DNA of 64,000 nucleotides, from NCBI GenBank assembly GCA_045128995.1, contig JBGVIW010000050.1:1211-65210 (forward strand). The letters are read 5' to 3'. The translations under genes were made by a program, and so were the position numbers. The DNA comes from Ruminococcus sp. GTDB lineage: Bacteria; Bacillota; Clostridia; Oscillospirales; Ruminococcaceae. Below are positions 12,591 through 19,720 of the stretch, piece by piece (positions within the stretch are counted from its first letter, which is position 1; each line of letters begins with the position of its first letter). Under the pieces are notes generated by a model. It ran no database searches. It was not told where the DNA came from and saw nothing but the letters and a program-made list of their open reading frames with translations.

Positions 12591-13085
12591 ATGCCCAATT
12601 CAAGTTCAGAGCTTAAACAGAAAAGGAAATCGTTCTGCTGTAATTATGTGCTGCTCGGTAATGTTGCTGAGGCAGCGGTGAGGGCTGGCTTCGACAGGGA
12701 AAACGCTCTGCTCGACGGAGTTGCCTGTCTCGAGTCGGCTGAGTGCAAGAGGCTCATCTCAAGACTCAGGGATGTTCTTTCAGACAGCGGCAATGTTGCT
12801 GCGGGACTGAAACGGCTTGCGTTCGGAAGCTGTAATGATGCTGTATACCTCGTCTTCGCCGACGAGCTCCCGCCTTCGGATGTTATCTCCGGACTCGATC
12901 TGTTCAATGTTTCGGAAATCAAACGTGTGAAGGGCGGCGGAGTTGAGGTAAAGCTCTTTGACAGACAGAAGGCGCTCGAAAAGCTGTTCGAGTTCGAGAA
13001 TACCTGTTCTGACAGGGGAAATGCTGCAAGTCTTATCGAAGCCCTGACTAAGCCTCCTGAGGAGGTCGGATGCCTTGAAAATTAG
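12591..13085 (+). CDS. Terminase small subunit-like protein (164 aa)
   Basis: Start moved to ATG 12591 after AGAAAGGAGA. KRKSFCCNYVLLGNVAEAAVRAGF HTH pattern, LKRLAF, EVKLFDRQKALEKL. Confidence 0.75.
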   Translation: MPNSSSELKQKRKSFCCNYVLLGNVAEAAVRAGFDRENALLDGVACLESAECKRLISRLRDVLSDSGNVAAGLKRLAFGSCNDAVYLVFADELPPSDVISGLDLFNVSEIKRVKGGGVEVKLFDRQKALEKLFEFENTCSDRGNAASLIEALTKPPEEVGCLEN

Positions 13086-14325
13086 TTCCTTCTCTCCAAA
13101 GCAGAAGCTCACTCTCAACTGGTGGAGCCGACCGGATTATTCCGGCTATGACGCTATTATCTGCGACGGCGCTGTCAGAAGCGGCAAGACGCTTTCTATG
13201 TCGCTTGGATTTGTCTTCTGGGCATCTAGCTCTTTCAGCGGCGGTACGTTCGCTATGTGCGGAAAGACTGTCACTTCCCTCAGAAGAAATGTCGTTACTC
13301 CGCTTCTTGCTACGCTGAGAGAGATCGGCTTCGTGTGCAGCGAAAAGCTGAGCAGGAACTATGTCGATATCACGCTCCTCGGCAAAACCAACAGGTTCTA
13401 CCTATTCGGCGGCAAGGACGAAGGCTCTGCTTCGCTGATTCAGGGTATCACGCTCTCGGGAGTTTTCCTCGATGAGGTCGCTCTCATGCCCCGCTCCTTC
13501 GTTGAGCAGGCTCTTGCAAGATGCTCTGTATGCGGCTCGAAAATGTGGTTCAACTGCAACCCCGATAACCCTTCTCACTGGTTCTATACCGAGTGGATCA
13601 AGAAGGCTGACGAAAAGCGTGCGCTTTATCTCCACTTCACGATGGATGATAACCCCTCGCTCTCCGAAAAGCTGAAAAACCGCTACAGAAGGCTCTATTC
13701 CGGCGCTTTCTATGACAGGTTCGTGCTCGGAAAATGGACTGCTTCTGAGGGGGTTGTCTATCCGATGTTCAGCAGGGATAAACACGTCTACTCCGGTGAT
13801 GCCGGATGCACGAGATATGTGATCTCCTGCGACTATGGCACGGTCAATCCGGCTTCGTTCGGACTCTGGGGTCTCGGCGAGGACGGCATCTGGAGACGTG
13901 TCAGAGAGTACTACTATGCTTCCAAAACTGAGGGTATCTCCCGTACTGATGAGGAGCATTATCAGGCTCTTGAGGAGCTTGCCGGTACTCTTTCCGTCGA
14001 GAAGGTCATCGTTGATCCCTCGGCGGCAAGCTTCATCGAATGCATCCGCCGCCACAAGCGCTTCAGGGTCGTCAAGGCTGACAATGATGTCATCACCGGC
14101 ATAAGACGTGTCAGCGCCGCTCTCAAGCAGAACAAGCTCCTTTTCCATGAATCCTGCCGGGATATTATCCGGGAGTTTTCGCTTTATCGCTGGAACGAAA
14201 AATCTGCCGGCGATTTTCCTATCAAGGAAAATGACCACGCTATGGACGATATGCGATACTTCGTGTCGGATATTCTCACCGAAAAGGGCGGGGATGATTT
14301 CTTCGCTCTTTCAGTTTCACGCTGA
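13075..14325 (+). CDS. PBSX-family terminase large subunit
   Basis: Walker A GAVRSGKT, Walker B VFLDE, CNPDNPSHW, nuclease motifs SCDYG and DHAMDDMRY all intact. Confidence 0.93.
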   Translation: MKISSFSPKQKLTLNWWSRPDYSGYDAIICDGAVRSGKTLSMSLGFVFWASSSFSGGTFAMCGKTVTSLRRNVVTPLLATLREIGFVCSEKLSRNYVDITLLGKTNRFYLFGGKDEGSASLIQGITLSGVFLDEVALMPRSFVEQALARCSVCGSKMWFNCNPDNPSHWFYTEWIKKADEKRALYLHFTMDDNPSLSEKLKNRYRRLYSGAFYDRFVLGKWTASEGVVYPMFSRDKHVYSGDAGCTRYVISCDYGTVNPASFGLWGLGEDGIWRRVREYYYASKTEGISRTDEEHYQALEELAGTLSVEKVIVDPSAASFIECIRRHKRFRVVKADNDVITGIRRVSAALKQNKLLFHESCRDIIREFSLYRWNEKSAGDFPIKENDHAMDDMRYFVSDILTEKGGDDFFALSVSR

Positions 14326-14373
14326 TATTCATTCACCTGCACCGTTCATCTATTACATCTGTAAGGAGGAAAA

Positions 14374-15522
14374 ATGAAGCTATTCAGAAACAAGAAGCGC
14401 ATCAGCGCTCCTGCAAATGCTCCGGAGCTTTATGCTGCACAGCGATGCTCCGACGGAAGCTTTTCGCTTCCGCAGGCTATGGAGCCGTTTGAAAAGGAGC
14501 TTTATGACAGGCTCCGCTTTGCCGTTCCGGTCATCGATGCCGCTCTTATGAAAATCGTCAGGCTCACCGGCGGATTCAATGTGATCTGCTCGGACGAGAG
14601 CCTTCAGGAGGAGCTTGACTTCTTCCTCAAAAACGTTCCGGTAGGTCTTACCGGAGTATCCATAAGCACCTTTATCGACAACTACCTCGACAGCCTTCTT
14701 ACATATGGTTCTGCTGTCGGCGAGATTGTTGTTGACTCCGAAAGAGGCTGTGTTGCCGGACTCTATAACGGCGATGTTTCACTCGTCAGGGTAACTCCCG
14801 GATCGAGTATGCTCGACAGAAAATATCTCCTCCGCTGTGAGGACGGTAAAACTGAGAGTATTGCTCATCCTGAGAGAATTTTCTATTCCGAGCTTACCGG
14901 CGGTCACTCCCTGCTCAGAGGACTCCCTTCTATCAGCGGCATTCTCCTGCGCATCTATCAGTGTATCGGTCAGAACTTTGACCGTGCCGGAAATGTCCGC
15001 TATGCCGTTACTTATAAGCCCTCTCAGGACAGCGGTGAGCTTGCTTATTCCCGTGAGCGTGCTATGCAGATCGCTTCAGAATGGGCTGACGGAATGAACT
15101 CCGCCAAGTACGGTCAGGTCAAGGATTTTATCGCTGTCGGTGATGTGGATATCAAGGTCATCGGCGCTGATAATCAGCTCTTTGATACTAATGTCCCTGT
15201 CCGTCAGCTCCTCGAGCAGCTTGTAGCTAAGCTTTCTATCCCACCGTTCCTGCTCGGACTGAACTGGTCCTCGACTGAGAGAATGTCCTCTCAGCAGTCC
15301 GATATTCTCACCTCTGAGCTGGAATATTACCGCCGCATCCTCACTCCTGTGATCAGCGGCATTGCCAATTCTTATCTCTGCTCGATCGGTTCGGACGCCG
15401 TCTGCCGTGTCGAATGGGATAACATCAATCTTCAGGACGAATCTGCTCTTGCGGAGGCTCGTCTTAAAAACGCTCAGGCGAGGGAAATTGAGCTTCGCCT
15501 TGAATCACTTAATAATAATTAA
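14374..15522 (+). CDS. Phage portal protein
   Basis: Follows TerL; 382 aa; LLTYGSAVGEIV, LSIPPFLLG, VEWDNINL patterns typical of portals. Confidence 0.8.
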   Translation: MKLFRNKKRISAPANAPELYAAQRCSDGSFSLPQAMEPFEKELYDRLRFAVPVIDAALMKIVRLTGGFNVICSDESLQEELDFFLKNVPVGLTGVSISTFIDNYLDSLLTYGSAVGEIVVDSERGCVAGLYNGDVSLVRVTPGSSMLDRKYLLRCEDGKTESIAHPERIFYSELTGGHSLLRGLPSISGILLRIYQCIGQNFDRAGNVRYAVTYKPSQDSGELAYSRERAMQIASEWADGMNSAKYGQVKDFIAVGDVDIKVIGADNQLFDTNVPVRQLLEQLVAKLSIPPFLLGLNWSSTERMSSQQSDILTSELEYYRRILTPVISGIANSYLCSIGSDAVCRVEWDNINLQDESALAEARLKNAQAREIELRLESLNNN

Positions 15523-18390: not shown

Positions 18391-18782
18391 GCGATAACTA
18401 TTCTGATATTATTTCCTCAAAAGCTCCATATCCGGTAAGAATCGGCACAATGCTCCTCTACTGCGAGAAATTCCACGCTGAAAGCTCCCGTGCCTATTCC
18501 GAGAAAACTACCGTCAGCGGAGATACTTTCTTCTCGAATACAAACAAAAAAGCCCTCAGGATAACTCTTGAGGGCAGGATCTATGACAAGGATGTTCCGA
18601 TGCGTTCGGTGCTGTATGTTAACGCTATGATGAAATCCGACATCACATTCAGCTTCGCTTACAGAGATATCTCCTTCTCCGGATGTCTCATCCAGTCATT
18701 CAGTGTTACCGACAGCGGAGAGGACTATATCGATGTTTCCATCACGCTCATCACTGTCCAGCCTGTGGCAAGCGAGGTGTGA
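18387..18782 (+). CDS. Putative tail-tube/distal-tail-fold protein
   Basis: 131 aa, beta-rich (ALRITLEGRI, CLIQSFSVTD..IDVSITL); ATGA overlap. Confidence 0.4.
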   Translation: MSDNYSDIISSKAPYPVRIGTMLLYCEKFHAESSRAYSEKTTVSGDTFFSNTNKKALRITLEGRIYDKDVPMRSVLYVNAMMKSDITFSFAYRDISFSGCLIQSFSVTDSGEDYIDVSITLITVQPVASEV

Positions 18783-18784
18783 CT

Positions 18785-19720
18785 ATGGACGCTCAGATAA
18801 GATTAAAGCACCTCTCCGGTCTCTCACTCGAAGAACCGGAGCTTATCTCATTTTCATTCGTCAAGGATGCCTACACTCCTTATACTACCCTCAGGGCAAG
18901 ACTTCACGGTGTTCAGGCTGATTATGAAACTATCACGGAAATTTTCCTCTATGTCGGCGAGCATCTTGTACATCACGGACTTGTCGATAAGCTCGATATT
19001 TCTGATTCAGATGGTATGAAACTCGTCACACTCTCCTCGAGAGGATTTACTTCGCTTCTCTGTCAGAATCAGATAACTCCCGGGCTTGTTTCTGATATCA
19101 CCATCAATGACCTCATGGACAGCTACTATCAGCTTCCGTATGTCACTCATGAGGATAATCCCGATCAGAGCGGCTATATCTATGTAAAGGACAGCTCCAC
19201 GATGTGGGACGGTATTGCAAACCTTGCTTTCAAGCTCAACGGGATATATCCCTACATAAGAGGTACTAACTGCGTGAGAACTTCGGCTGAACAGAATCCG
19301 AAAGCGTTTGTGTATGATAATTCATCTATCATCGAATCGGGAATGGGCTATGATTATGTCAACATGATAAGCCATTTCGATATGTCTGACATCAACGGCG
19401 AATACGGTGAATTTACCCTCAGTGACTCTGACGTGAGAACCTGCATGATCGAGCGCCATAGGGTCTTTGAGCTTGATATGCAGTTCCTCTATGACCCTCA
19501 GCAGGCACTTGAGTACAGAAGTAATTATTCAAAAAGAGGCTGCCGACGCTATTTCTGCCGCTACTGCGGCTATAACGGCGAGGATCTCTGCGATCTGGTA
19601 AGCTTCGGGAATATCTCCTCCAAGCGCATCGGAAAAATCGAGATCTCCGGTAACAACAGCGGTATTTTTACCTCGCTTTCTGTCTACTACGACGGCTTCT
19701 TCAATCAGGGAACACTCTGA
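18785..19720 (+). CDS. Putative baseplate hub / Tal-like protein (311 aa)
   Basis: Start at ATG 18785 after GAGGTG. ISFSFVKDAYTPYTTLRA, LVHHGLVDK..VTLSSRGFTSLL, YIYVK..TMWD layout resembles hub proteins. Confidence 0.45.
   Translation: MDAQIRLKHLSGLSLEEPELISFSFVKDAYTPYTTLRARLHGVQADYETITEIFLYVGEHLVHHGLVDKLDISDSDGMKLVTLSSRGFTSLLCQNQITPGLVSDITINDLMDSYYQLPYVTHEDNPDQSGYIYVKDSSTMWDGIANLAFKLNGIYPYIRGTNCVRTSAEQNPKAFVYDNSSIIESGMGYDYVNMISHFDMSDINGEYGEFTLSDSDVRTCMIERHRVFELDMQFLYDPQQALEYRSNYSKRGCRRYFCRYCGYNGEDLCDLVSFGNISSKRIGKIEISGNNSGIFTSLSVYYDGFFNQGTL

Follow-up and report, generated by a model that had tools for sequence, protein, structure and literature searches.

A window of 64,000 nucleotides (nt) from the genome of Ruminococcus sp. 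(GenBank assembly GCA_045128995.1, contig JBGVIW010000050.1, positions 1,211 to 65,210 of the forward strand) was analysed with regard to a cluster of phage-type genes at window positions 12591-19720. We consider it probable that this cluster is the main operon of a domesticated, split and vertically inherited particle system similar to gene transfer agents (GTAs), with a minimal tail capped by a hub. An initial annotation of the window had proposed a domesticated head-packaging cluster and candidate GTA. This interpretation is supported: those of its refutation tests that could be run were all decided in its favour. The head and packaging genes were found as described, but the cluster is not restricted to the head, as its last gene encodes a tail hub.

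Nine open reading frames (ORFs) on the same strand, overlapping or abutting, occupy the 7.1 kb of the cluster. All are intact and free of frameshifts, as the initial annotation had stated. The assigned roles are without exception packaging or structural, and domain scans of this chromosomal locus revealed no integrase or replication domains. The nine genes, with lengths in amino acids (aa), are:

12591..13085, + strand: g1, small terminase TerS, 164 aa (PF03592 Terminase_2, 1.1e-09; phrog_2606 and phrog_51)
13075..14325, + strand: g2, large terminase TerL of the PBSX family, 416 aa (PF03237; phrog_2, 1.5e-48; NCBIfam TIGR01547)
14374..15522, + strand: g3, portal, 382 aa (phrog_30703, 2.6e-132; relatives carry PF04860)
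15544..16503, + strand: g4, HK97-type major capsid protein, 319 aa (PF25209, 9.2e-11; phrog_3922, 3.3e-67)
16745..17620, + strand: g5, predicted prohead (maturation) protease, 291 aa (phrog_16951, 2.5e-91; fold match in BFVD)
17601..17987, + strand: g6, putative small neck or connector-type protein, 128 aa (role from position)
17980..18390, + strand: g7, putative small neck or tail-proximal protein, 136 aa (role from position)
18387..18782, + strand: g8, putative small tail protein, possibly Dit-like, 131 aa (weak match to PF21821 Dit_like, E 0.003, below the family cut-off)
18785..19720, + strand: g9, tail or baseplate hub with the gp27 / Mu gp44 / VgrG-base fold, 311 aa (AlphaFold2 and Foldseek)

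Start codons were refined from the conservation of the N-terminal parts of the ORFs across species. In three mechanically called ORFs these parts were unconserved, and the starts were therefore set to 12591 for TerS, 16745 for g5 and 18785 for g9. The ATG at 12591, which had been proposed as the start of TerS before, was thereby upheld. It is preceded by the ribosome binding site AGAAAGGAGAGG, and g1 overlaps terL by 11 nt. TerS aligned to positions 2-126 of the 141 positions of the Terminase_2 model; as the alignment begins at model position 2, the protein is not visibly truncated. TerL was assigned to the PBSX family with 216.7 bits (TIGR01547, cut-off 105). Its Walker A motif (GAVRSGKT), the Walker B motif and the acidic motifs of the nuclease are at least 97% conserved across 76 species, so that the catalytic motifs are complete, as had been read from the single sequence.

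For g5 the AlphaFold2 model (predicted local distance difference test, pLDDT, 69.5) has a beta-rich domain, behind which three long helices make up the C-terminus. No structural match to this model was obtained in the PDB. The best match in BFVD was a 'Prohead serine protease' (E 7.7e-18, 38% identity), followed by more XkdF-type and prohead proteases. Weak matches to PF14550 were detected for three of 25 orthologues. In other genera the homologue of g5 is located between portal and capsid, which is the usual place of a protease or scaffold gene. Hence, g5 is read as an XkdF-like maturation protease with a scaffold-like helical tail at the C-terminus.

The three small genes g6, g7 and g8 are conserved in the species examined. 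From their position alone we infer that they encode neck or tail-proximal proteins. No match in PDB, Pfam or PHROG was found for g6. The sole PDB match of g7, lambda gpU, was insignificant (E 1.5), and no PHROG match was obtained; g8 gained no support from PDB or PHROG. PHROG scans of 25 orthologues of each of the three genes gave nothing, the profiles of g7 and g8 showed no relationship to each other, and profile searches with g5-g9 against the PDB sequences yielded no usable match. The structure prediction for g9 (pLDDT 86.2, predicted template modelling score, pTM, 0.85) was informative. In the Foldseek search against the PDB the top match was 3d37, a tail protein of a Neisseria prophage (E 5.2e-19, TM 0.68). 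Mu gp44 (1wru, 2.9e-18) and the 43-kDa tail protein of MuSo2 were also matched, and hubs of contractile injection systems, pyocins, diffocin and the type VI secretion system protein VgrG ranked lower. The fold of g9 thus matches tail hubs; the cluster ends in a tail cap and is not head-only. Genes for a tube, sheath, tape measure, baseplate wedge, chaperone frameshift product or fibre were found neither among the nine genes nor in the flanks.

The composition of the cluster is that of the host. Its relative synonymous codon usage correlated with that of the host at 0.87, compared with 0.18 for the AT-rich island at window positions 1-8000. The codons CTC, GCT, GAG, AAG and ATC, named earlier as host-preferred, all behaved as stated. 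Scans with Pfam, PHROG and NCBIfam detected no domains for an integrase, a repressor, replication or lysis in the cluster, and no direct repeats bracketing it were found, in agreement with the initial annotation. These results bear on the possibility of a capsid-forming satellite (cf-PICI-like) or another helper-dependent mobile element, which would build its own small heads and borrow tails from a resident phage. The gene set, which includes terminases, portal, protease, capsid and connectors but neither tube nor tape measure, does resemble such satellites. This ambiguity is also raised for candidates of the Oscillospirales in a 2026 preprint, and the genome itself harbours an unrelated prophage fragment. 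However, a satellite would not explain the missing integrase, att repeat, replication and regulatory modules, the encoded tail hub, the host codon usage, or the single copy per genome that is fixed across the genus at saturated synonymous divergence. The flanks, moreover, consist of host core genes and vary from species to species. We regard a satellite as very unlikely.

The distribution of the cluster is that of a resident gene set. In 24 of 25 Ruminococcus species the portal gene occurs once per genome, with 66-76% identity; from the remaining species the capsid gene is missing as well. The genes g1-g9 were colinear in all of the 19 extended loci. A scan of species-representative genomes gave at least 524 relatives, of which the best 80 were examined for gene order. 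These 80 all belong to Ruminococcus in the strict sense, among them R. flavefaciens FD-1, 007c and ATCC 19208 as well as ND2009 and Y1, and as far as the contigs reach, the nine genes stood in order in every one. Patchiness among strains, named in the initial annotation as an argument against a domesticated cluster, was therefore not observed. Only one internal stop, a TAG in the terL of one metagenome-assembled genome (MAG), was found in about 700 gene copies; the other apparent stops fall in over-extended alignment ends. Beyond the genus, the portal profile had one strong match in 76 of the 166 genera of the Ruminococcaceae, including genomes of 0.7-1.0 Mb. The same genes occur in these other genera, with capsid and protease in either order and the hub usually after them. 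The order is permuted by lineage: capsid-protease in Ruminococcus, protease-capsid in many other genera, and both genes after the hub in R. callidus.

All nine genes are under purifying selection with ratios of nonsynonymous to synonymous substitution (dN/dS) of at most 0.35. The values were calculated between species by the method of Nei and Gojobori and are upper bounds, because synonymous sites are saturated (proportion of synonymous differences, pS, about 0.74). For the core genes of the cluster dN/dS was 0.10 (TerL), 0.115 (portal), 0.126 (capsid), 0.16 (protease) and 0.19 (TerS), for g6-g9 it was 0.23-0.35 (g6 about 0.25, g7 about 0.27, g8 about 0.35), and for the host genes glmU and ppdK 0.08 and 0.10. 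The proportion of nonsynonymous differences (pN) was 0.18-0.20 for TerL, portal and capsid and 0.15 for glmU. Relaxed selection, the second argument raised against domestication, was thus not found, the ratios lying between 0.10 and 0.35. An inert prophage remnant that has not yet decayed would account for the lack of most phage functions and for the labelling of relatives as viral fragments in databases. It hardly fits nine genes that are intact in about 100 species at saturated synonymous divergence with such dN/dS ratios, and that are retained even in genomes of 0.7-1 Mb; the saturated pS also argues against low dN/dS as an artefact of recent spread. A remnant is therefore the least credible explanation, and we give it almost no weight.

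The nine genes co-vary in distance with each other (r 0.45-0.64). When the distances of the cluster were compared with those of neighbouring host core genes, the correlation reached r = 0.79 (p = 0.0005). The latter test is weaker than a comparison with the species tree, because adjacent genes are linked to the cluster. The flanks vary among species, yet they are ordinary host genes such as AzlCD, glycoside hydrolases with dockerins and others, and this genome contains homologues of the flanking genes at other sites (53-91% identity). In seven species the conserved ppdK-glmU pair lies on the contig of the cluster at a distance of 0 to 160 kb. Variable flanks of host genes together with this linkage fit an old chromosomal resident in rearranging genomes and not a mobile element.

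No complete phage or prophage carrying the module was found in INPHARED or IMG/VR. The test for near-identical genes in complete prophages, likewise proposed in the initial annotation, was thus negative in these collections. Six INPHARED records contain a related portal: five unverified faecal contigs with 45-47% identity and one Microcystis phage with 26%. The largest of the faecal contigs, MT835508.1 ('UNVERIFIED: Bacteriophage sp.', 46.7 kb), was considered as a complete phage relative and rejected, since it carries a ribosomal-protein operon, secY, adk, rpoA and Rnf genes and is hence part of a bacterial chromosome. In its relative of the cluster, the genes for TerS, TerL, portal, protease and capsid are accompanied by three small genes, and a hub gene is absent from the vicinity. 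IMG/VR contains 400 relatives, and the 80 listed are all on contigs of 2.5-27 kb. Such short contigs are to be expected when a viral call is set off by an isolated head operon.

Upstream of terS a conserved element was identified:

12463..12551, + strand: conserved upstream element with the box TGTGCA-N-TACAAA, a T-run, the palindrome ATTCAACGG-N4-CCATTGAAT and a conserved block

In the terS leader of about 90 nt these parts follow each other in the order box, T-run, palindrome (TTCAACG-N-CGTTGAA) and conserved block, the last reading CC..TTTTC..GCCC..TTATGAACGG. The element is conserved before terS in 28 species. The pairing of the palindrome is retained through two-sided changes (13 cells, reached by none of 500 shuffles). 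On the + strand ahead of terS a single promoter-like site was found, the sigma-70-like sequence TTGAAT-18-TATTAT at 12516-12545. No Rfam family matched the element, and its predicted RNA fold was no more stable than that of shuffled sequences (z = 0.26). The compensatory changes would fit a DNA operator equally well as a structured RNA. With the covariance model R1, matches were found in all 16 Ruminococcus genomes searched, and in 13 of these the best match was at terS; G004, G017 and G062 score lower there.

Within its own genome the element has further copies at C69:4741-4790, ahead of a fibre-lysis module, and at C82:14084-14138, in the dnaA-dnaN spacer before dnaN. The copy on contig C69 shares a stretch of 51 nt with the terS leader at 86% identity and precedes five genes:

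C69 gene 1: ORF of 62 aa, the first after the element copy
C69 gene 2: fibre-like protein of 389 aa with SHAEG-type repeats (phrog_25468, 4e-21)
C69 gene 3: XhlA-like membrane protein (phrog_1863)
C69 gene 4: holin-like protein (phrog_13256, 2.6e-23)
C69 gene 5: Amidase_3-SPOR endolysin (phrog_435, 3e-49)

This module forms an island of 2.7 kb amid host genes, with tyrS and a cellulase of glycoside hydrolase family 9 nearby. The suggestion of the initial annotation that lysis genes may be located elsewhere in the genome is borne out by this unlinked fibre, holin and endolysin module with the upstream element of terS. In seven further species, the same element stands ahead of operons of the fibre-like, BppU-like or holin-lysin type. 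It is followed by pairs of a small protein and a fibre in G004, G012, G016 and G017, by BppU-like and beta-helix proteins in G020 and G021, and by a holin and an M15 lysin in G217. Thus, the putative accessory fibre and lysis genes are placed at a second locus with a common upstream element, the link being incomplete across the genus. A second fibre-like gene was detected at C95:4893-5708 (minus strand). It resembles the C69 fibre in the C-terminal domain (63-70% identity) and in the first 34 residues (68%), a pattern that suggests exchangeable receptor-binding modules.

A GTA-like packaging of short random host DNA was described as commonest in Ruminococcaceae and Oscillospiraceae (PMC12946183, Nat Commun 2026). 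For R. callidus, particles with random host-DNA fragments of 4.6 kb were reported, with no locus named (PMC12946183). A similar enrichment in virus-like particles was found for the same families in mice in a 2026 preprint, whose authors also state that GTAs are hard to tell from capsid-forming satellites and note this ambiguity for candidates of the Oscillospirales. In our literature search no paper describing the present operon was found. Proteins of R. callidus and R. champanellensis fall in the portal family of g3. An NCBI contig of R. callidus contains TerS (47%), TerL (67%), portal (57%) and g6. Contigs from gut metagenomes with the exact R. callidus portal contain a g7-sized ORF and g8, then the hub (34%), the capsid gene (49%) and the protease gene (47-49%), with guaB as the next gene. 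Taken together, these contigs place all nine gene families in R. callidus in permuted order, if the g7-sized ORF is counted as g7. In metagenome assemblies of R. callidus, contig breaks recur a short distance upstream of the portal gene. With 7.1 kb for the operon and about 2.7 kb for the second locus, the sizes of the two loci can be set beside the 4.6 kb of packaged DNA reported for this species.

On homology and fold, TerS and the PBSX-family TerL would form the packaging motor at the 382-aa portal, and the 319-aa HK97-type capsid would be matured by the XkdF-like prohead protease. The three small proteins g6-g8 would serve as neck, and the hub would cap a stub tail without tube, sheath and tape measure. 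Fibre and lysis genes would be supplied from the separate chromosomal site behind the terS-type palindrome element, and one host factor may turn on both operons in a subpopulation of the cells. The small heads would then be filled with headful-sized chromosomal DNA, probably of about 4-5 kb and thus too small for the operon of 7.1 kb, and the cells would lyse and release the particles, whose DNA might be transferred to recipients.

A wider reading, in which our confidence stays somewhat below even, joins these results with the published data. The operon family would then underlie the packaging of about 4.6 kb of host DNA in gut Ruminococcus and represent a second domestication, independent of FpGTA and far wider. 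A phage of the PBSX lineage would have been cut down to a small head and a hub-capped stub tail and kept for long in about half of the genera of the Ruminococcaceae. Its genes may form a dispersed regulon of head operon, diversifying fibre modules and lysis cassette, controlled via one palindromic promoter/operator element and tied to a master switch of host or phage by the copies in prophages, in integrative and conjugative elements (ICEs) and before dnaN.

FpGTA is the closest published case for comparison. Its operon I (10.5 kb, ten ORFs) begins with TerS-TerL-portal and includes scaffold and capsid genes, and its operon II encodes baseplate, fibre, receptor-binding protein (RBP), holin and endolysin; the particles are capsids of 40 nm which look tail-less and contain 8.4-8.9 kb of DNA (PMC12946183). 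It shares with the present cluster the bacterial family and a chromosomal, near-ubiquitous head operon which lacks an integrase and starts with TerS-TerL-portal. A separate operon for fibre/RBP, holin and endolysin is also common to both, this two-operon layout being an architectural resemblance and not evidence of homology. A tail-less or very short-tailed particle with short host DNA is a further likeness, with the particle of the present cluster predicted from its genes. In contrast, the capsid protein of FpGTA (RCH50849.1) is named as N4-gp56 family, while g4 belongs to PF25209/phrog_3922 and gave no match to the N4-gp56 family model (NCBIfam, E <= 0.1). The FpGTA protein between portal and capsid (RCH50850.1) is named as a Prp-type cysteine protease, whereas g5 is the 291-aa protein resembling XkdF and prohead serine proteases. 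The TerL of the present cluster is of the PBSX family, and the two systems derive from different phage lineages. Homology was therefore rejected: as the cluster has neither an N4-gp56 capsid nor a Prp protease, FpGTA is analogous and not homologous. FpGTA is also backed by microscopy, proteomics and DNA data.

PBSX of Bacillus subtilis is the nearest relative by family membership, since the TerL family, the protease type, the lysis set and the hub are shared. In detail, both have a TerL of TIGR01547, a Terminase_2-type TerS, an XkdF-type prohead protease, a lysis cassette of XhlA-like protein, holin and amidase, and a hub of the Mu gp44/XkdQ type; PBSX is likewise chromosomal and packages random host DNA. 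It differs by a full contractile tail with sheath, tube, tape measure and baseplate, by a single locus of about 28 kb and by its own regulators Xre and Xpf. The present system has only a hub for a tail; its fibre and lysis genes lie at a separate locus, and its surroundings contain no dedicated regulator. RcGTA of the Alphaproteobacteria is similar in its early gene order (TerS, TerL, portal, protease, capsid, small connectors), in its vertical inheritance under purifying selection in a large clade, in having fibre and lysis loci elsewhere, and in the expectation that the packaged DNA is smaller than the gene cluster. Its cluster of about 15 genes, however, encodes a complete siphovirus-type tail with tube, tape measure, distal tail, hub and megatron, where the present one stops at the hub. 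The TerS of RcGTA is without DNA-binding domain, the phylum is another one and no sequence relationship was detected. The profile of RcGTA and PBSX, to which the cluster had been likened from the start, hence holds for the PBSX-family genes and the vertical inheritance, but not for tube, sheath and tape measure. Satellites of the cf-PICI type share the small-capsid head and packaging genes and the connectors without tube or tape measure; they are mobile and self-packaging, with an integrase, att sites and replication and regulatory modules, none of which is present here.

In the main rival explanation, the domesticated particle is selected for a role other than transfer: PBSX-like killing or triggering of lysis, release of DNA or public goods, or decoy of and interference with phages, the packaging of DNA being a by-product. 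PBSX has the same TerL family and an XkdF-type protease, and packages host DNA, reportedly without delivering it (discussed in PMC12946183). The putatively co-regulated lysis cassette and an upstream element common to prophage and ICE operons would also suit such a role, and conservation alone is silent on which function is selected. On the other hand, the cluster contains no sheath or other killing device and no known defence system (no PADLOC match). TerS, the nuclease and ATPase motifs of TerL and the portal are under strong purifying selection, which argues that the filling of the heads with DNA matters. A non-transfer role is consequently unlikely in our view, if clearly less so than a satellite.

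Several points weigh against a GTA-like particle system. In the PDB sequence and PHROG searches g6-g8 showed no recognisable fold or family. We know of no citable solved precedent in which a hub attaches to the neck with no tube in between. To judge from its sequence, TerS has not obviously lost its DNA-binding part, unlike the TerS of RcGTA and, as reported, that of FpGTA. For Ruminococcus in the strict sense, the proposed particle is at present a prediction from genes, and the packaging observed for R. callidus could be due to some other element. The correlation of the cluster with unlinked host markers was weak (Mantel, glmU r = 0.37, p = 0.07). The two unlinked host markers correlated with each other at only r = 0.29, and as they agree no better mutually, this test lacks power. 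PpdK in particular was a poor marker, because its sequence varies too little (89-92% identity) and contig ends frequently interrupt the gene. The phylogenetic congruence proposed as a check in the initial annotation was thus seen with the adjacent host genes and only weakly with unlinked glmU. The upstream element occurs in 1-26 copies per genome, also before early genes of prophages and ICEs (primase, excisionase, helicase, replisome organiser) and here before dnaN. As it is found before varied phage-type operons, it is a shared control signal and not a private mark of the particle system. The fibre gene, finally, was detectable in 7 of 27 species, mainly by its C-terminal domain.

Members of Ruminococcus have a keystone role in fibre degradation in the rumen and in the human colon, and their exchange of genes, for instance those of cellulosomes and dockerins, is poorly understood. 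If the GTA-like reading is true, the cluster represents a new lineage of gene transfer agents in Gram-positive bacteria with an unusually minimal tail. Ruminococcaceae and Oscillospiraceae were identified in two 2026 studies (one PMC12946183) as main sources of randomly packaged host DNA in virus-like particles of the gut. The operon is a concrete candidate, and the best to date, for the genes behind this packaging in Ruminococcus, the responsible genes being otherwise known only for Faecalibacterium. It is present in cultured strains, namely R. flavefaciens FD-1, 007c and ATCC 19208, R. champanellensis and R. callidus. The results also explain a recurrent artefact, the calling of these loci as viral fragments in IMG/VR and GenBank with a misnamed portal. 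Many portals of the g3 family are named 'serine/threonine protein phosphatase' by the NCBI pipeline, which hides the loci from keyword searches.

The unrelated prophage fragment of this genome is located on contig C77 (7.3 kb). It contains two helix-turn-helix regulators, a TerS-like gene, a TerL with 30% identity to g2 and a portal-sized ORF of 491 aa. Besides the cluster, the MAG hence contains a conventional phage, at least in part.

Three further features lie at the edges of the cluster or within it:

12391..12430, + strand: intrinsic terminator of glmU, a GC hairpin with T-run (read off the sequence; glmU by Pfam)
16504..16744, no strand assigned: capsid-protease spacer of 241 nt with GC-rich hairpins, about 190 nt of which are an interspersed host repeat
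19743..20000, + strand: orphan FeoA-domain ORF of 85 aa (PF04023, 1.3e-14), 22 nt past g9

The host repeat reported earlier inside the cluster is real and makes up these 190 nt. At least seven further copies with about 83% identity were found in the genome, on C82, C70, C114, C139, C157 and C67. The repeat may act as an attenuator or mRNA stabiliser setting the ratio of capsid to protease. The bounds given in the initial annotation, the glmU terminator and feoA, are both present. The terminator is the left edge in this genome only, as glmU does not adjoin the cluster in most other species. The supposed feoA is an orphan FeoA-domain ORF, which in roughly half of the species comes next after the cluster: position and strand are kept in 36 of 72 related loci extending beyond g9. 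Its neighbour is a convergent gene for a P-type cation ATPase and not feoB. The ORF may belong to the operon as a tenth, SH3-like component, or be a conserved neighbour. At the other side, ppdK (window 8072-10699) adjoins the AT-rich island, which has a GC content of 30-38%. This gene is broken at contig ends in many related assemblies, and the edge of the island at ppdK may be a recurrent insertion site.

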